DNA of 64,000 bases from Alphaproteobacteria bacterium (lineage in GTDB: Bacteria; Pseudomonadota; Alphaproteobacteria; UBA828): positions 864,001 to 928,000 of the forward strand of contig CBDCRW010000004.1 in the NCBI GenBank assembly GCA_965221125.1, given 5' to 3'. Positions within the stretch are counted from its first letter, which is position 1. The number at the start of each line of letters is the position of its first letter. The position numbers were made by a program, and so were the translations under genes. Shown one piece after another: positions 25,134 through 32,057 of the stretch. Below the pieces are notes generated by a model. That model saw only the letters and a program-made list of their open reading frames with translations. It was not told the origin of the DNA and made no database searches.

Positions 25134-25472
25134 CTATCCGATCACGCCGGACCGATGCGCGCCGGTGAGAGTCCGATCGGAATTGCGATCGGCACGGGGG
25201 GCGTCCGGATAGAACTGCCTGCAATAGCGCCGATACTTGCCGATGGGACCGTCGGAACGACACAAGCGCGGACGGCGCCTGTAGCTCTTTTGCTGCCAGA
25301 TTACGACGTCCTGAAGAACATCCTTCTCCTGCATGGACATTATGATCCTGTTCATGGTCCTGGTGCGCAATCCAACCGGCAGGAACCGGAGCCCGGCGAT
25401 CGCACGTCTCGGCTTTCGCAGTTGCCGAAGCTGCGAGACCAGAACCAGCTCGATGAGCGTGCCATCCACTGG
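25134..25472 (-). pseudogene. Rieske oxygenase (KshA/Neverland-like), 3' fragment
   Basis: PVDGTLIEL...QDVVIWQQK..RPRLCRSDGPIGKYRRYCRQFY; joins the middle fragment in frame across the ACTGG TSD. Confidence 0.88.
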
Positions 25473-25877
25473 TGTTGTTTCGCACGTTATTTGACGCCGA
25501 ATCTCCCAGATTATTTGACGTGATCGCTGCCCTGATTTCCCAGATTGCTCGGTCTTTTCCGGATCGAAGCGTAGGAGCTCATGGTCTCTGCGGGCGGTCC
25601 GGGGTCGCTGTCTGATTGAGGTTTGGACTGGTGCTTGAGGAGAGCTGACGAGGTGTCGCGCGGCCGTCGGCGCGTCAAGCGGCTGCGCCGCTCCTGCGCT
25701 TCGCTTCGGCCCTTCGGGTGACTCGCCACCGTCCACACGACGAAGTGCTGCCATGGCCTGAAGCAAGCTTCCGGCCACGGACTGGCCGCTCACCTGACGT
25801 AGTATCCCGGTGGAGGCGCAGCGCCTTCCGGACCGTTGGGGAAGGGTGGTTCCCGACGGCGGTTCCGGCTCGAACCC

Positions 25878-26918
25878 CTAGGCGTTGGCGGAACCGGGCT
25901 CCGGGAACCGCGGGGCCTGCGGCCGACTGCTGCCGTTGGCGGCGGCGGCCGCCGCCCGCTTGTCCGCTGCGCCTGCGACGACGCTGTAGCCGCCCTCGGC
26001 GTTGCGCGCGACGCGACCCTCCTGGACGAGCTTTTGCAAGATTACGCCGACGGTCTTGTGCCGGGTCGCGGCGCGTTCCCGGATCTGGCGTTGCGAGAGC
26101 GGCGCCCCGGCGTCGGCGAGCGCCTTGAGAACGCGGCATTCGGGTGTTTCGGGCTGAGGCGCCCCGCCGCCGGCCGTGGGCGGCTGGCGCAGCCGGAAGG
26201 AGGGCTCCTCTCCGTCTTCCTTGAGCTCGATCTCGATGTCGTCGAGACCGCGTGCGGCGCGATGCTCGACGGTCATGAGGGTCTGCCGGTCCCGGCGGCG
26301 CAGGTAGAGGTTCGAGTCCCCCCAGGCGTGCAGCTCACTGCTGCCCCGCAGGGCCTGCCCCGGCCTCGTGGCCCCGCTCTTGCGGGCGTGGTGGACGAGG
26401 AGGACGGCGGTCTCGAAGCGGCGTTGCAGGTCGCGCAGGAAGCCGAGGATCGGGGCGACGTCCGCAACCGTGTTCTCGTCCACGCCGTGCAGGCGGACCA
26501 GGGGGTCGAGGACCACGAGGCGCGGTGCGATGCGCTCCACGGTCTGCTGCAGGCGGCGGCGGTCGTCGAGATGGTCGAGGCGCAGTGTGGGCACGTCGAT
26601 GACGGCGATGTCGAGGGTCTCGAAGCGGGCGCCTGCGGCGCGGGCGATCCCCTGCAGGCGCTTGCGCACGAGGTGGCCGGCGTCTTCTGCGGCGAACAGC
26701 AGGACCGGGCCAGGCCGGGCCGGGGCGAAGTGCCGCAGGCATGGGACGCCGGCGGCGACTGCGACCGCGAGGTCCAGCGCCAGGATGGACTTGCCGCACT
26801 TCGGCTCGCCGCCGACGATGCCGACGGCCTGCTCGCCCCATAGCGTGTCCACCAGCCATTGCTGCTCGCGCGGCCGCTCCTCCAGCTCGATCGGGGCGCG
26901 GGTCGGGAAGCCGGTCAT
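25878..26918 (-). CDS. AAA_25/RecA-RepA-like ATPase with C-terminal HTH-like region
   Basis: GEPKCGKS Walker A, AAED, LVVLDP, LLVHH, ALRGSS; C-terminal LKAL..APLSQRQIRE; ATGA overlap with the ExeA gene. Confidence 0.85.
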   Translation of the reverse strand: MTGFPTRAPIELEERPREQQWLVDTLWGEQAVGIVGGEPKCGKSILALDLAVAVAAGVPCLRHFAPARPGPVLLFAAEDAGHLVRKRLQGIARAAGARFETLDIAVIDVPTLRLDHLDDRRRLQQTVERIAPRLVVLDPLVRLHGVDENTVADVAPILGFLRDLQRRFETAVLLVHHARKSGATRPGQALRGSSELHAWGDSNLYLRRRDRQTLMTVEHRAARGLDDIEIELKEDGEEPSFRLRQPPTAGGGAPQPETPECRVLKALADAGAPLSQRQIRERAATRHKTVGVILQKLVQEGRVARNAEGGYSVVAGAADKRAAAAAANGSSRPQAPRFPEPGSANA

Positions 26919-27715
26919 GGCCGCAGTTCCTCGAGCGCGTGCTGCAGGTGGTCGGCACTGACGGTCCTCGCCTCGTCGAGAGCGGCGGCGGAGAGCGCGT
27001 AGTGGGCGATGCGGTTGATCTGGCGCGGCAGGCCGCGCGCGCCCTGGAACAGGGCCTCGACGGCGGGCTCTTCGAACAGCGGCAGTTCGCATCCCGCGAG
27101 CCTGAGGCGGTGCTTGATGTAAGCGTCGACCTCGTCGCGGTCGAGACCGCTCAGGTGGTGGCGGACGACGAGGCGCTGGCTGAGGGATTCGTGCATGGCC
27201 ATGGCCAGGCGGCGCCTGAGCTCGGTCAGACCGACGAGGACGAGGCACAGGCGCTGCTCTGCATCCATGGCGAAGTTGGTGAGCAGGCGCAGGTCCTCAA
27301 GGACGTCGTTGCGCAGATGATGGGCCTCGTCGATGACGAGGACCGGCAGCTGCTTGGCCTCGGTGACGAGGCGGGAGATCTCGTTTCGGATGGCCTGATA
27401 GGCCGAGGCGCGGGAGCGCTCGATGGGCAGGCCGATCTCCCACGCGATCGCCTTGTACATGTCGAGCACGTTGCCCGTGGTCAGCGAGACGTAGTGGACC
27501 CGGTAGAGGCCTGGATGAAGCTGCGCGGTCAGATGCCGGCACACGGTGGTCTTGCCGGAGCCCACCTCGCCGGTGAGCAGGCCGATGCCGCGCAGGTCGA
27601 TGAGGTGGCCGAGCCTGGCCTCGGCCTCGCGGCGCGCGTTGGACTCGAACAGCTCGTCGGTCTCTGCCGGGGTCTCGAAGGGCAGGCGGGTGAAGGCGAA
27701 GTGGCGCAGGTACAT
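26915..27715 (-). CDS. ExeA-family AAA ATPase (TnsC/MuB-like transposition helper)
   Basis: YLRHFAFTRLPF, GEVGSGKT, LVIDEAH, LVG, GLPRQIN. Confidence 0.9.
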   Translation of the reverse strand: MYLRHFAFTRLPFETPAETDELFESNARREAEARLGHLIDLRGIGLLTGEVGSGKTTVCRHLTAQLHPGLYRVHYVSLTTGNVLDMYKAIAWEIGLPIERSRASAYQAIRNEISRLVTEAKQLPVLVIDEAHHLRNDVLEDLRLLTNFAMDAEQRLCLVLVGLTELRRRLAMAMHESLSQRLVVRHHLSGLDRDEVDAYIKHRLRLAGCELPLFEEPAVEALFQGARGLPRQINRIAHYALSAAALDEARTVSADHLQHALEELRP

Positions 27716-29043
27716 CACTCGTCCTCCTTCTTGTCCTTGAGGTTGCGCATGGCCAGCGGCGAGGGCGGAGGCTCGGGCGCCGGATCTTCGGCCTCGATCT
27801 CCCTGGCCGGGTAGGTGCGCCTGACGGCGGTATTGGCGTAGGCGTCGAGAGGGCTGGCCTTGCCGGCCGGCTTGCCGTCATGGACCACGTCGAGAGGGCG
27901 CGAGGGCGGCGCGGCCGGGTCGTAGCGCAGGATGACGTTCTGACCCACCAGGAGGGCGTCGACCTCGTAGACGCGGCCGTTCAGACTAACGGTGCGGTCC
28001 TTGTAGACACGGCGCCTGGCCTCGAAGAGGAACAGATCGTCGAGGTCCATGGTGGCGTCGGGATAGCGCACGCCGGCCGAGGCCAGCGCCCACTGCTCAA
28101 GCGGGGTGCGCCCCTCGTCGAGGCCACGATGCGGGCTGTTGTGATACTCCCCCTCGATCCAGGCCCAGAGGCTGCGGTTGAGCGCCTCCAGGCTGTCGAC
28201 GTCATCGCCGAGGTGGCGGAGCCAGCCGGCCCGGAGGGTGCGGAAGAAGCGCTCGATCTTACCCTTTCCCGCTGGCTGGAACGCCCTTGCGTGAATCAAC
28301 GCAACGCCGAGCCTGGCGCAGACCAGGGAGAGATGACGGGAGCGGTAGGCGCTTCCGTTGTCGACGTACAAGCGGGCCGGGAGGCCGCGCCGGATCAGCG
28401 CGTCCTTGAACACCGGCAGGAACGCCGCAGTGTTCTCCGCCATGGCGAAGGCGGCGAACGGGATGACGCGGGTGGCGTCGTCGATGAAGGCGATCAGGTA
28501 GGTCTTGCGCCGGGTTCGGCCGTGCCGGACCTTGGGTCCGTGCATGACGTCGCTCATCCACATCTCGCCGGCATGCCGGAAGGCGAAGCGGCGGCGATCC
28601 GCCCCGTCGGGCGGCTTCTTGTCGAACAGGCCCTCGCGGCTGAAGAGGCGGTGCACGGTGGACGAGGCGAGCGGGTGGTCGATACCCTCCTCCTTGACCT
28701 TCTGGATGATGGCGCGAACCGACAATGCGTCGTTCTCGGTCTTCAGCGCGATGAGGCGCTCGGCGACCTCGGGCGGCAGCCGCCGGGGCTTCCCCCGGTC
28801 GGTGCGGGGCTTGGGGTAGAGCGCGTCGAAGCCGCCGTAGCGGTAGTCCTTGATCCAGCGCCGCATGGTCTCGGCGGCGACCCGGGTCCTGGTGGTTCCG
28901 GGGATCGTGTAGGTCTTCTCGGCTTTGGCGCGCATCATCGCGCCGGCACCCGGTGCACCCACGGGCAGATGCACCAGATCGGCGATGACGTCGTATCGGA
29001 AGAGCGCGATCTGTTGGCGAAGGTCGTCGTCTGAGCTGTTCAT
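27715..29043 (-). CDS. DDE-type integrase/transposase (rve core plus Mu-type C-terminal domain)
   Basis: WMSD, IDDATR, YVDNGSAY, KGKIERFFRT catalytic D-D-E; N-terminal HTH. Confidence 0.93.
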   Translation of the reverse strand: MNSSDDDLRQQIALFRYDVIADLVHLPVGAPGAGAMMRAKAEKTYTIPGTTRTRVAAETMRRWIKDYRYGGFDALYPKPRTDRGKPRRLPPEVAERLIALKTENDALSVRAIIQKVKEEGIDHPLASSTVHRLFSREGLFDKKPPDGADRRRFAFRHAGEMWMSDVMHGPKVRHGRTRRKTYLIAFIDDATRVIPFAAFAMAENTAAFLPVFKDALIRRGLPARLYVDNGSAYRSRHLSLVCARLGVALIHARAFQPAGKGKIERFFRTLRAGWLRHLGDDVDSLEALNRSLWAWIEGEYHNSPHRGLDEGRTPLEQWALASAGVRYPDATMDLDDLFLFEARRRVYKDRTVSLNGRVYEVDALLVGQNVILRYDPAAPPSRPLDVVHDGKPAGKASPLDAYANTAVRRTYPAREIEAEDPAPEPPPSPLAMRNLKDKKEDE

Positions 29044-29088
29044 GGTGCGATCCTCGTTCAGGGACTCCCTGGCCCCGGGATCGTCACG

Positions 29089-29724
29089 CTACGAACTCTC
29101 CGGCGGCGGGTCCGGCCCCGCCCGTTGTTGGAACTGCGGTTTGCGATTCCCCACGTCGATGCCGTGGGGTTGGAAGCCCAGAGGCGCGGGTAGCGTCCGG
29201 AGCTGCCCGGCGACCAGGCCGCGCAGTTCCATCAACGCGCTGTCGCTCTTCAGACGCTCGCGCACCGCGCTCATGGTGGGCGCGCAGCCCGCGAGCAGGT
29301 CGGGGATCAGGCCGATGACGCGCACAAGCGCGTCGTGCACAAGCTTCAGCCTGCGGCGGATCCAACGCACGGCGCCGGGAAGCTCGATGGCGTCCTCGTC
29401 CTCGGGGCAGCGCACCTCGTCCGCTGCCTCCTCCAGGCTGCCGGCCTCCTCCGCCACGACAACAACCGCTTCCAGCGCATCGAGCGTGCCCGGCAGCCGC
29501 GCCGCCAGACAGTCGGCCAGCAGGCCGATGGTCGTATGGCTCTCACGGCAATACCAGCGAGGAACCCTTGCGCCGGGCGGGGTCTTCCGCTCGTAGGTGC
29601 CGTGGCTTGCCACAGAACATCCGCCGTGCGGGTGATTCGGGCAGCGCTCAAGCCTTGCGTCGCGCCACGCCTCGGTCTTAACGTATTCCTCGCTGGTGAG
29701 CCCCGTTTCGTAGCGAAGCTGCAC
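29089..29724 (-). CDS. Transposon-associated Cys/His-rich protein (DUF6431-like)
   Basis: CP.H...C...HG.YERK...R.YC...H.T..LL; first gene of the transposon operon. Confidence 0.65.
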   Translation of the reverse strand: MQLRYETGLTSEEYVKTEAWRDARLERCPNHPHGGCSVASHGTYERKTPPGARVPRWYCRESHTTIGLLADCLAARLPGTLDALEAVVVVAEEAGSLEEAADEVRCPEDEDAIELPGAVRWIRRRLKLVHDALVRVIGLIPDLLAGCAPTMSAVRERLKSDSALMELRGLVAGQLRTLPAPLGFQPHGIDVGNRKPQFQQRAGPDPPPESS

Positions 29725-29813
29725 CGGCCCTGGCCCGGCGGGAGTTCCGTCCCCCGGGCCTCTCTTTGTCGTTCAGTGAGAGGCCAAGATTACGGACGCT
29801 CCCCGCCGCCGCC

Positions 29814-29947
29814 AAGCTGTGGAGCCGTGGACGCGTCCTGCGGACCGATCGGCGTCCTGCGGACCGTGTGGACAGCCCGTGGACAAGCTGGCGCTTGCCC
29901 ACCGCCTGACCACACTCGCCGATCTCGCGCCCACCGCTCCACAGCTT
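29814..29947. other. Structured element (nested hairpins) in the transposon leader
   Basis: AAGCTGTGGAGC (29814-29825) pairs with GCTCCACAGCTT (29936-29947); internal long hairpin; 15-bp direct repeat GCGTCCTGCGGACCG x2. Confidence 0.6.
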
Positions 29948-30093
29948 CAACAGCAATGAGGATTCTGCTGAGGATCAAAAAAATGCCGCAGGCAGCGTCC
30001 TTCCCGCACTCGGCCACCATCCCGGGAAATCCACCAACCAATCAAAGTGAGAAAAAAACCCGTGCTTCTATCCGGCTAGACCGGAAAACAACA

Positions 30094-30604
30094 ACTGGCG
30101 TGGCAAGGACCCACAGACGCGTGTCCATTCCTATCGAGTGTTCGCGGACATCGACGTACGAGTAACCCAGCCCATGGACGTGTGTGATGGCTGAAACATC
30201 GTAGTGAACATCGGCGAGACCGGCGATGCGCCAGCGACGCCGGAAGTTGAAGCAACTCACGAGATGCGCGCCGTCTACGGTGGCTGTTCCAACAGCTTCC
30301 ACATTGTCGTAGCCGTGAACGTACCGCAGGTGCGCCAAGTCTACCGAGTTCTCCGTCGTCTCCTGAGGATGGCCGGCGAATCGGAAGGTCCGAGTTTCCA
30401 TGCCGCTCCACTCGCCTCCGCCCTCCGGCCCTTTCGGAAGGTCCCATTGCGGCGGGCGTCCATCGATGCCCCACCAGGCGAAAACCAGGCCGGCAATCTC
30501 CCGTGTCTCGAAGACGTTCAGCCTTGTGGACTTGGGCGGCTCAGCAAAGGGAGTCGCGACACAAGCACCGGCGGCATTGTAGGCGAAGCCGTGAAAGGGA
30601 CAGA
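30094..30604 (-). pseudogene. Rieske oxygenase, middle fragment
   Basis: CPFHGFAY...GLVFAWW...ENSVDLAHLRYVHG (mononuclear Fe ligands)...LWVLATP. Confidence 0.9.
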
Positions 30605-32057
30605 GGTTGTGTCCCCAGACGTGGTGTAGGAGCTCCCGCTACCCCCGGTAGCTGTGGGTAACCGGCTTGGCGCCGCGACCGCCCTCGAGTCTGGTGGCGC
30701 CAAGCCGGTTATCCACAGCGGGGTGGCCATCGCGGTTCCGGTTTAGGGTTTGGGTGAATCCGAATCGACCCGAGCCTAAGGAGAACCACGATGACCGATG
30801 ACAAGCTTACCCTGCGGACGCTGTTGGAGAAGAGCTCTGACGCCGATCTGCTGCGTGAGATGATCGCCTTCTCTGCGCAGCGCCTTATGGAGCTGGAAGT
30901 CGAGGGCCTGACCGGCGCCGAGCATGGCGCGCGGACGCCGGAGCGGATCAACCAGCGCAACGGCTACCGCGATCGGCCTTGGGAGACCCGGGCCGGCACG
31001 GTCGACCTGAAGATTCCGAAGCTCAGGAAGGGGAGCTACTTCCCCGGCTTCCTGGAGCCCCGACGGACGGCGGAGAAGGCGCTCACGGCGGTGATCCAGG
31101 AGGCCTACATCCAGGGGGTATCGACCCGCTCGGTCGACGAACTGGTTCAGGCCATGGGCATGAGCGGGATATCGAAGAGCCAGGTCTCGCGCCTTTGCGG
31201 GGAGATAGACGACAAGATCCGCAGCTTCCTCGACCGCCCGCTCGAAGGCGACTGGCCCTATCTCTGGCTGGATGCGACTTACGTGAAGGTGCGCGAGGCC
31301 GGGCGCATCGTCCCGGTCGCGGTCACCGTGGCCGTCGCGGTCAACGACCAGGGCCGGCGCGAGATCCTCGGCATGGCGATCGGCGCCTCCGAGGCCGAGA
31401 CCTTCTGGACCGAGTTCCTGCGCTCGCTGACCAGGCGCGGCCTGCGCGGCGTGCAGCTGGTGATCTCCGACGACCACAAGGGCCTGAAGGCCGCCACCAC
31501 CCGGATCCTCGGCGCCACCTGGCAGAGATGCCGCGTCCACTTCATGCGCAACCTGCTGGCCCATGCCGGCAAGCAGGGCCGGCGCGTCGTCTCCGCCTTC
31601 GTCGCCACCGCCTTCGCCCAGGACGATGCCGAGGCCGCTGCCGCCCAGTGGCGCCTGATCGCCGACCAGCTCAGGCCCAAGGCCTCCAAGCTGGCGGCCC
31701 TCATGGACGAGGCCCAGCACGACGTCCTCGCCTACATGAGCTTCCCCAAGGAGCACCGGGTCAAGCTTCACTCGACCAACCCGCTCGAACGCGTCAACGG
31801 CGAGATCAAGCGACGCACCAACGTCGTCGGCATCTTCCCCAACGAGGACGCCATCACCCGCCTCGTCGGCGCCGTGCTGCTCGAGCAGAACGACGAATGG
31901 ACCGTCGGAAGGAGGTACATGACGCTGGAATCGATCGCTCCCCTGAGCGACAATCCCACGATCAAGCTGTCCGCTGTGGCAGCCTGAATAACCCGGCCCT
32001 ACCCGCCGGATGCCGCGTAAAGCGCGACGCTCTTACACCACTCCTCGGGACACGATC
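30605..32057 (+). mobile_element. IS256-family insertion sequence (1453 bp)
   Basis: Imperfect TIRs GGTTGTGTCCCCAGACGTGGTGTA and (rc) GATCGTGTCCCGAGGAGTGGTGTA; 8-bp TSD GGGACAGA/GTGACAGA with one mismatch. Confidence 0.92.
30791..31987 (+). CDS. IS256 family transposase
   Basis: RNGYRDR.W.TRAG..L.IPKLR.GSYFP, WLDATY.K, ISDDH.GL, WQRC.VHF.RN, STNPLER.N.EIKRRT. Confidence 0.96.

Follow-up and report, generated by a model that had tools for sequence, protein, structure and literature searches.

The window analysed here, a 64,000-nucleotide stretch of an alphaproteobacterial genome (contig CBDCRW010000004.1, positions 864,001 to 928,000), carries a four-gene transposable element that we identify as a Tn6049-type transposon with a replication-type accessory module added to it. 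Its first three genes belong to a group that already has a name, Tn6049, but has yet to be characterised; they form the core of that group and do not define a new class. The fourth gene, which encodes a predicted helicase of the AAA_25 family, is accompanied by arrays of inverted hexamers and by a structured non-coding block or, in some relatives, by a primase gene. We think that helicase, arrays and block or primase probably form an origin-like add-on which serves the copying step of transposition and eases its dependence on the host, a reading to which we give a probability of roughly 55%; the function in copying is inferred from evidence at the level of sequence. The element, its genes (all on the minus strand) and the parts of the module are the following.

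25473..30093, minus strand: whole transposable element, 4621 bp; the genes read from 30093 to 25473, and the copies in the genome share both ends.
29089..29724, minus strand: orf1, 211 amino acids (aa), a divergent DUF6431-type Zn-ribbon/helical protein.
27715..29043, minus strand: DDE transposase, 442 aa, with HTH_32, rve (E=1.2e-10) and Mu-transpos_C (E=1.7e-7).
26915..27718, minus strand: AAA+ ATPase of the AAA_22 ('ExeA/GspA-like') type, 266-267 aa (Pfam AAA_22, E=5.7e-27).
25878..26918, minus strand: RepA-like AAA_25 (superfamily-4) predicted helicase with a winged helix, 346 aa; core at residues ~10-200, C-terminal winged helix-turn-helix (wHTH) at ~255-315.
25848..25909, minus strand: inverted hexamer arrays about the AAA_25 stop codon.
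25652..25791, minus strand: conserved non-coding block of ~145 nucleotides (nt), whose two-domain fold on the sense strand is supported by covariation.

The product of the fourth gene matched Pfam AAA_25 (E=1.7e-36, 126 bits) and, weakly, MarR_2. Its closest solved relative is the RepA helicase of RSF1010 (1g8y; E=4e-12, residues 32-196), and further matches are to the helicase portions of primase-helicases from phages. The Walker A residues K40, G42, K43 and S44, as well as D138, are invariant in 30 sequences. On these matches the protein is helicase-like, of the RSF1010 RepA type within superfamily 4, in agreement with an original prediction made for this DNA. A search for relatives gave 7882 of 8000 scored candidates at E<=1e-3, the top 120 being 69-92% identical. 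A transposase and/or ATPase gene of the family lies directly upstream of AAA_25 in 77 of 79 genome loci, a count that shows position and not frequency because the loci were ascertained through the AAA_25 protein. The two exceptional loci are one whose contig starts 221 nt before the gene and one (L061) with neither transposase nor ATPase.

The same kind of helicase is found with transposases that are only distantly related. In type 1 elements orf1, transposase and ATPase are 72-99% identical to those of the window, whereas in type 2 elements the transposase and ATPase are 25-31% identical to the window's, the type-2 transposase being 51% identical to that of Tn6049; across the two types, however, AAA_25 is 64-84% identical. 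A single short branch of ~0.08 substitutions per site parts types 1 and 2 in the AAA_25 tree, while in the transposase tree they fall in different deep clades, with a separation of more than 2 and each beside helicase-less relatives. Close AAA_25 proteins on transposases so far apart fit a single transfer of the module with co-divergence afterwards. A third helicase lineage (L188, G283:C198:1-3441) shows identities to the window of 35% for the transposase, 35% for the ATPase and 49% for AAA_25; it has a GTGA gene overlap, an orf1 with a canonical CPRCGG and a contig end within AAA_25, and its transposase is nearest (41-42%) to an Acidithiobacillus/Pandoraea group. The three helicase-bearing transposase lineages are mutually only 25-40% identical, and the helicase occupies the same slot in each. 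Pairwise ratios of nonsynonymous to synonymous substitution (dN/dS) spanned 0.22-0.37 in AAA_25, 0.17-0.36 in the transposase gene, 0.07-0.38 in the ATPase gene and 0.31-0.44 in orf1. We conclude that in several lineages the AAA_25 gene belongs stably to the element and is under selection, and that it is a real accessory module. The four-gene synteny on which the original prediction was built recurs in three transposase lineages, but most relatives are without AAA_25; the rare linkage that the prediction regarded as telling against itself thus holds across the Tn6049-like family, yet the gene is fixed in at least three sub-lineages.

The non-coding block keeps 78-98% nucleotide identity in type-1 and type-2 elements. 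Its fold of 48 pairs has 96.7% of cells paired in 14 sequences, compared with 24-45% in slid controls, and compensatory double changes occur in 8 pairs versus 2.5+-1.1 in shuffles, none of 500 shuffles being as high. The excess of G-U over A-C cells (22 versus 4) assigns the fold to the sense strand. The single-sequence folding energy is unremarkable (z=-0.6), and it is the covariation that supports the fold. Rfam has no family for the block, and the only Rfam match of the element is at chance level (E=0.96). The block was also seen at L019:4144-4289, at L030:7053-7194 and elsewhere, always downstream of AAA_25, and a deletion variant that skips 65 nt within 25664-25728 was found in a relative; it appears in contigs that a single sample yielded from a DNA run as well as from an RNA-library run.

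In some elements a 289-aa DUF3991+Toprim_2 primase gene follows AAA_25 and replaces the block. Over 80 loci, AAA_25 was followed by the block in 52, by the primase in 20, by both in none and by neither in 8 (two of these 8 are cut by contig ends and one has a primase farther downstream). At L087:7242-10903, a relative of type 1 has orf1, transposase, ATPase and DUF3991-Toprim primase with no helicase. This relative is the second element of L087; its transposase is 53% identical and its primase gene follows the ATPase gene directly. It has inserted beside or within a type-1 element, and the AAA_25 gene of the latter is broken there.

The hexamer arrays consist of GGTTCC at 25904-25909 and 25890-25895 and GGAACC at 25861-25866 and 25848-25853, on the two sides of the stop codon at 25878-25880; elsewhere in the element each hexamer has a single stray copy. 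From lineage to lineage the two arms change in concert (GGTTCC/GGAACC, GTTACC/GGTAAC, GTTCCC/GGGAAC), and a putative recognition-helix motif tracks the hexamer, RHKTVG and RNATV being found with a GTTCCC core and RPATVA with GTTACC. Because the number and spacing of the hexamers differ between the two arms, we take them more readily for binding sites of a protein than for a simple hairpin, although the RNA may form one; taken as RNA, the region folds with -34.6 kcal/mol (z=-1.8). A promoter and terminator scan of the element gave no signal above shuffles.

The mutual exclusion of block and primase and the replication-type occupants of the fourth slot are our main arguments for an origin-like module. 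Every non-trivial occupant of this slot is a replication-type protein. In the helicase-less relatives L011, L094, L095, L096 and L098 the slot after the ATPase holds an open reading frame (ORF) of 65-90 aa with no Pfam match. Such variability across the family, where the same place can hold a small ORF of 65-92 aa or else a helicase or primase gene, could perhaps mean that AAA_25 is a passenger with no part in movement, such as an ATPase for defence or anti-defence or a selfish gene hitching a ride. We find this barely plausible, given that the occupants are consistently of replication type, with conserved cis elements and co-divergence with the transposon, and that PADLOC returned no match for AAA_25 (nor for orf1).

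If the module is origin-like, transposition might proceed as follows. The transposase, helped by the ATPase to capture a target in the way known from Mu, Tn552 and Tn5053, would join the 3' ends to a near-random target, and the joining would leave branched DNA that needs replication, either as a Shapiro-type intermediate or through an IS3/IS481-type copy-out. The winged helix would then load the RepA-type helicase onto the hexamer arrays within the element, and the helicase would unwind the element independently of the host restart primosome. The displaced sense strand would be primed at the block, in the manner of a plasmid single-strand-initiation signal, or by a Toprim primase that the element itself encodes. 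The stronger claim, that the transposon has its own miniature origin and replicates the intermediate or a transient circle without the host restart machinery, is one that we put forward only tentatively.

The ends of the element, which the original prediction had described as precise TG...CA ends with a 5-bp target-site duplication (TSD) and subterminal repeats, are borne out by the junctions and by further copies in the same genome. The features at the ends are listed here.

25473..25480, unstranded: terminal inverted repeat (TIR) of the helicase-side tip, TGTTGTTT; relatives keep this tip as TGTTGTYTC.
30086..30093, unstranded: TIR of the orf1-side tip, AAACAACA.
25468..25472, unstranded: left copy of the TSD, ACTGG.
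30094..30098, unstranded: right copy of the TSD, ACTGG.
25487..25520, unstranded: two direct subterminal repeats TTATTTGACG (25487-25496 and 25511-25520), candidate inner transposase-binding sites.
25534..25541, unstranded: GATTTCCC motif, 62-69 bp from the helicase-side tip, mirroring 30024-30032.
30024..30032, unstranded: GGATTTCCC motif in minus-strand reading, 62-70 bp from the orf1-side tip.

On the plus strand the left junction (25472/25473) reads CCACTGG/TGTTGTTTCGCACG and the right junction (30093/30094) reads GGAAAACAACA/ACTGGCG, and the TIR is perfect and inverted over 8 bp. Pairs like TTATTTGAYG, resembling the TTATTTGACG pair, are found at the corresponding end of type-2 elements. 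Another subterminal repeat, TCCCAGATT, lies at 25504-25512 and 25538-25546, and GATTTCCC occurs near both tips, 62-70 bp in and in inverted orientation; GGGAAATC is kept across 10 type-1 elements. On the orf1 side, the non-coding region 29740-29960 contains ~190 extra bases upstream of orf1 in the sub-lineage of the window (with L015-L017) that are absent from other type-1 elements, and these hold a 22-nt inverted repeat (29814-29835 / 29926-29947) that is 91% complementary.

The 4621-bp element was used as a BLAST query against its own genome (4.58 Mb, 7 contigs, 69% G+C), and 20 copies were found with boundaries identical to the window copy, a number far beyond chance. Seventeen of them are uninterrupted and 100% identical, and three are split by a 1453-bp IS256-like insertion; the AAA_25 frame is open in all 20. 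The TSD is a perfect 5 bp in 15 copies, 4 bp with a one-base offset in two, and matching at 4 of 5 positions in one, while two inverted copies, 45 kb apart, hold one another's flanks (GAGGG/CCCCG). Contigs from other sequencing runs break at 25472/25473 and at 30093. The element is thus intact and recently and repeatedly active, and the suggestion of an intact, possibly active element with a transposase and AAA pair in the style of Mu and Tn552 agrees with the 20 copies, the TG..CA ends and the 5-bp duplications.

The pair with exchanged flanks lies outside the window, at C4:671960-676580 and C4:716887-721507, and indicates a 45-kb inversion, through recombination between copies or through intramolecular replicative transposition. 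The lack of a TnsA-type second nuclease and of a resolvase, the raised copy number and this one pair are consistent with replicative movement. So are deletions in Cupriavidus metallidurans that end at retained Tn6049 copies, as listed in a passage of PMC13192273.

A transposon-plasmid hybrid would also account for an origin. In this case a true origin would let an excised circle replicate transiently as an episome, raising the number of copies or their transfer, and the module would not act on the transposition intermediate itself. The RSF1010/IncQ replicon combines the RepA helicase, the RepB' primase, the iteron binder RepC and an oriV with ssiA/ssiB hairpins. The element parallels it in a RepA-matching helicase core, in short iteron-like DNA repeats and in a hairpin-rich block or primase gene, the RepA match being computed and the parts list being general background. 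IS3/IS481-type elements move through circles, the module is portable between transposase lineages, and related elements occur in metagenome-assembled genomes (MAGs) labelled as several phyla. However, the DNA-binding domain of the window's protein is fused to the helicase, with no initiator-type protein beyond this wHTH fusion; the primase of the relatives is DUF3991-Toprim and not RepB'; the repeats are 6-7-bp inverted arrays and not the 20-bp direct iterons of RSF1010; and the module lies inside a DDE transposon. No plasmid form was met with, as AAA_25 relatives were found neither in 72,556 plasmid records (tblastn) nor in viral contigs (profile scan). All copies found were integrated, and contigs of four runs showed no tip-to-tip joint, although contigs cannot exclude rare circles. 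We consider the hybrid unlikely.

It could further be imagined that the wHTH-ATPase is a regulator or target chooser which binds the arrays or the target, for autoregulation, immunity or a TniQ/TnsD-like selection, and that its helicase ancestry is incidental. In Tn7 and Tn5053 a fourth protein docks on the AAA+ ATPase, and this precedent, the translational coupling of AAA_25 to the ATPase gene through an ATGA or GTGA overlap and the resemblance of the inverted repeats at the AAA_25 stop codon to an operator all point in that direction. So does a 597-aa protein (P0004), 92% identical over its AAA_25 part, which reads as an ATPase-AAA_25 fusion; it is one member on one contig, and may be a true fusion or may result from a single-base error in the ATGA overlap. 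On the other hand, one type of AAA_25 protein serves ATPases that are only 25-31% identical, its Walker motifs are invariant, and a Toprim primase that replaces or accompanies AAA_25 is hard to explain for a regulator. The insertion-site preference, which the original prediction had wished to see mapped, is weak: the 20 sites have in common a G at TSD positions 4 and 5 (13 of 20 copies each) and nothing else. For these reasons we regard a regulator or target chooser as improbable, and of the two functions proposed earlier for the second ATPase, target selection or replication, it is replication that fits better, the sites being only weakly G-G.

There are a number of points that count against an origin-like module. 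What supports it is anatomy, copy number, phylogeny and selection, from which replication, unwinding, hexamer binding and priming are inferred. The AlphaFold models are poor, with a predicted local distance difference test score (pLDDT) of 52 for AAA_25, for which the alignment rows were all at least 69% identical, and of 46 for orf1; the C-terminal winged helix (residues ~260-315) is the sole part of AAA_25 modelled confidently (AlphaFold2). The link between winged helix and hexamer comes down to about one switch (RPATVA with GTTACC), L084 being intermediate. The sense-strand fold of the block fits a plain RNA element of a 3' untranslated region, and the repeat at the stop codon may fold into a hairpin in RNA. 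Ordinary recombination between two copies would explain the pair with exchanged flanks equally well. The host has priA (624 bits), and the idea that the element substitutes for a missing host PriA is thereby ruled out. Finally, AAA_25 is absent from Tn6049 and from all eight plasmid relatives inspected, and no AAA_25 or Toprim match was obtained in any of 80 metagenomic loci of transposase relatives (transposase 33-84% identical; 30 of the 80 have at least 600 nt after the ATPase, room to show AAA_25). Since relatives without AAA_25 exist, the family transposes without the helicase, which is dispensable for the basic reaction.

The same absences contradict the claim of the original prediction that the second ATPase is core machinery. 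A distinct, little-described class in which it is obligatory would be in keeping with the four-gene order in three transposase lineages, with purifying selection on all genes, and with the failure to find a description of the four-gene set in the full-text literature (a coverage that excludes subscription journals, ISfinder and TnCentral). It is very unlikely, however, because the nearest helicase-less relatives of the transposase are abundant and themselves multicopy-like, and the helicase-bearing clades nest among helicase-less ones in the transposase tree. Nor do the four genes make up a class of their own, the first three being the Tn6049 core and lying in the same order on plasmid pHS87a.

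Tn6049 was reportedly first described by Van Houdt et al. in 2009. On Pseudomonas aeruginosa pHS87a it encodes a 181-aa protein, a 479-aa 'IS481 family transposase', a 277-aa AAA ATPase and a 90-aa ORF, and by BLASTP the window transposase is 26% identical (E=9e-25) and the ATPase 28% identical (E=6e-15) to its proteins. In C. metallidurans CH34, according to passages of the two papers cited here, it is 3.5 kb long and present in 12 copies, each with a 'gspA' ATPase (PMC2864759), and it has TGT... tips, 12-bp inverted repeats and 4-bp direct repeats (PMC4739549). Its transposition module 'could not be categorized', in the words of a passage of PMC6210171, and so a match to a catalogued family with known roles, which the original prediction took as the outcome that would speak against it, was obtained for the family but not for the roles. 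The window element is like Tn6049 in its gene order on one strand (small Cys-rich/HTH protein, IS481-like DDE transposase, AAA_22 ATPase), in its TGT tips, short TIRs and 4-5-bp target duplications, and in being multicopy and compact. It is unlike Tn6049 in having a 346-aa AAA_25-wHTH protein with cis elements in the fourth slot in place of the 90-aa ORF, in its size of 4.6 kb and its mostly 5-bp duplications, and it belongs to a sister clade in the transposase tree.

The Tn6049-like group is widespread on plasmids and in metagenomes, mostly without the helicase. A tblastn search of plasmids with the window transposase gave 1037 records, all below 60% identity, and relatives from Cupriavidus necator, Pandoraea, Acidithiobacillus, Streptomyces, Geobacillus, Sporosarcina, Mycobacterium and Rhodococcus were inspected. 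The transposase is present in all eight, an adjacent ATPase is annotated in six and found by tblastn in eight, an upstream ORF of 530-640 nt is present in six (annotated DUF6431 in three), and a small ORF of 65-85 aa follows the ATPase in four. The elements of C. necator and Pandoraea were considered as Tn6049 itself and rejected, as the Tn6049 12-bp inverted repeat is not at their ends; they are relatives only.

The four genes of the element (orf1, DDE transposase, AAA_22 ATPase and AAA_25-wHTH) are closely packed, with 45 nt between orf1 and the transposase gene, and the last three overlap at their stops and starts, as had been predicted (GTGATG between transposase and ATPase, ATGA between ATPase and AAA_25). 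None of the four ORFs has a Pfam or NCBIfam match to TnsA, TniQ or a resolvase, again as stated beforehand. For orf1, which had been called DUF6431-like, the assignment holds at the level of profiles but not in direct searches. Its motifs are CPNHPHGGC...HGTYERK...RWYCxxSHTT, with the canonical CxxC pairs partly replaced, and it has no Pfam match even at E<=10 (DUF6431, PF20020, included), no NCBIfam match and no pairwise BLASTP match to DUF6431 proteins or to the type-2 orf1. With hhalign, the orf1 profile, built from 28 homologues, gave no match to a single type-2 orf1. Only the comparison with a six-protein profile succeeded (96.8% probability, E=2.7e-10, 106 columns); these proteins occupy the corresponding position in plasmid-borne relatives, and at least two of the six, the two scanned, pass Pfam DUF6431. 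In the protein Atlas, DUF6431 clusters make up 28 of the 30 orf1 matches. Homologues of orf1 number 1297.

The catalytic residues of the transposase are D165, D228 and E264, and 33 of 33 relatives have all three unchanged. Among NCBIfam models IS481 (NF033577; E=1.4e-59) scores best, with 201.9 bits under a cut-off of 224, and the Mu-like phage transposase family phrog_310 matched at E=3e-49. The ATPase matched phrog_296, a 'DNA transposition protein' (E=1.4e-29), has invariant Walker A (G52/G54/K55) and Walker B (D129/E130) residues, and reached 20.8 bits with Pfam TniB, under the cut-off of 22.4. Judged by these matches it is the MuB/TniB/TnsC-type partner of the transposase.

The element resembles Mu, Tn552, Tn5053/Tn402 and Tn7 in its rve and Mu-transpos_C transposase with a neighbouring MuB/TniB/TnsC-type AAA+ protein, and in its TG..CA ends, 5-bp duplications and several subterminal repeats per end; TnsB and TnsC gave weak matches. 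In contrast to those systems, its transposase is much shorter (442 aa) with IS481 as best model, it has an extra DUF6431-type protein and a helicase, which they are without, and it shows no match to the TnsA, TniQ or resolvase of Tn7 and Tn5053 proper. With IS481 it shares the best NCBIfam model, the TGT tips and the 'IS481 family' label that RefSeq gives to the Tn6049 transposase. IS481 elements have a single ORF, however, while here four genes, including an AAA+ partner, lie between the ends and the transposase stays below the NF033577 cut-off. IS21 (IstA/IstB) is similar in its DDE and AAA+ pair, coupled genes and compact layout like that of an insertion sequence (IS), but the IS21 transposase model scored 43 bits against a cut-off of 160, the ATPase is AAA_22 and not IstB-type, and the window element adds the DUF6431-type and helicase genes.

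Beyond the source genome, type-1 copies were found in MAGs labelled Alphaproteobacteria, Dehalococcoidia, Acidobacteria and Poribacteria, the Dehalococcoidia copy having a transposase 91% identical and lying on a 442-kb contig, and type 2 also in MAGs labelled Acidimicrobiales, Gemmatimonadota and Chloroflexota. Copying that is less dependent on the host would fit this occurrence. As a further point against an origin-like module, the phylum labels may be binning errors, most contigs being of 2-7 kb and only that of Dehalococcoidia of 442 kb. About half or more of the sampled words of the element were contained in DNA runs labelled sponge or marine metagenome (four studies) and in a single run of a coded organism (a fifth study), the best-matching runs having been excluded from this survey as a possible source. 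Contigs of one such run cover 29 of 30 bins of the element at 90-100% likeness. RNA-library contigs from three studies cover relatives of the element, although contigs cannot show transcription, strand or ends. In 300 genomes of the same class there was no close relative of the transposase, with three weak matches overall and none in the two genomes of the same family; AAA_25 gave two matches in this sample, one of which led to the element of the third helicase lineage. Given the lack of a close relative within the class sample, the element is patchy and has recently expanded in its source genome.

The window copy lies within a Rieske/KshA-type oxygenase gene, and in-silico removal of the element and one ACTGG leaves one open frame. 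The two parts of the interrupted gene are as follows.

25137..25472, minus strand: 3' part of the oxygenase gene (KshA_C model positions 157-207, E=1.7e-10).
30096..30602, minus strand: 5'-ward part of the oxygenase gene (KshA_C positions 2-124, E=4.4e-13, with a Rieske tail).

An IS256-family IS of 1453 bp stands 510 bp from the transposon, at 30603-32057 (C4:894603-896057), with a 398-aa transposase at 30791-31987, and makes a second cut in the same oxygenase gene, further upstream. It has 14 copies in the genome, three of them inside copies of the 4.6-kb element, with 8-bp duplications.

For the source genome, the element marks a heavy recent IS expansion and rearrangement, and its copies disrupt genes. 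Being small (4.6 kb), intact and evidently very active, it could be rebuilt to dissect the unstudied Tn6049-type machinery, and the non-coding block is a candidate structured RNA or single-stranded DNA element, backed by covariation and without an Rfam family. On the usual view, DDE transposons that move replicatively or by copy-out rely on the host replisome for copying. A helicase carried by the transposon itself, and a primase carried by some relatives, together with cis signals of their own, would solve this copying step in a new way, and a replication module of its own would offer a testable reason for an unusually broad host range. If the element does carry a miniature origin, the resulting independence could let near-identical copies spread across phyla that share a habitat, and the element would be a prokaryotic DDE counterpart of the 'self-synthesising' elements.

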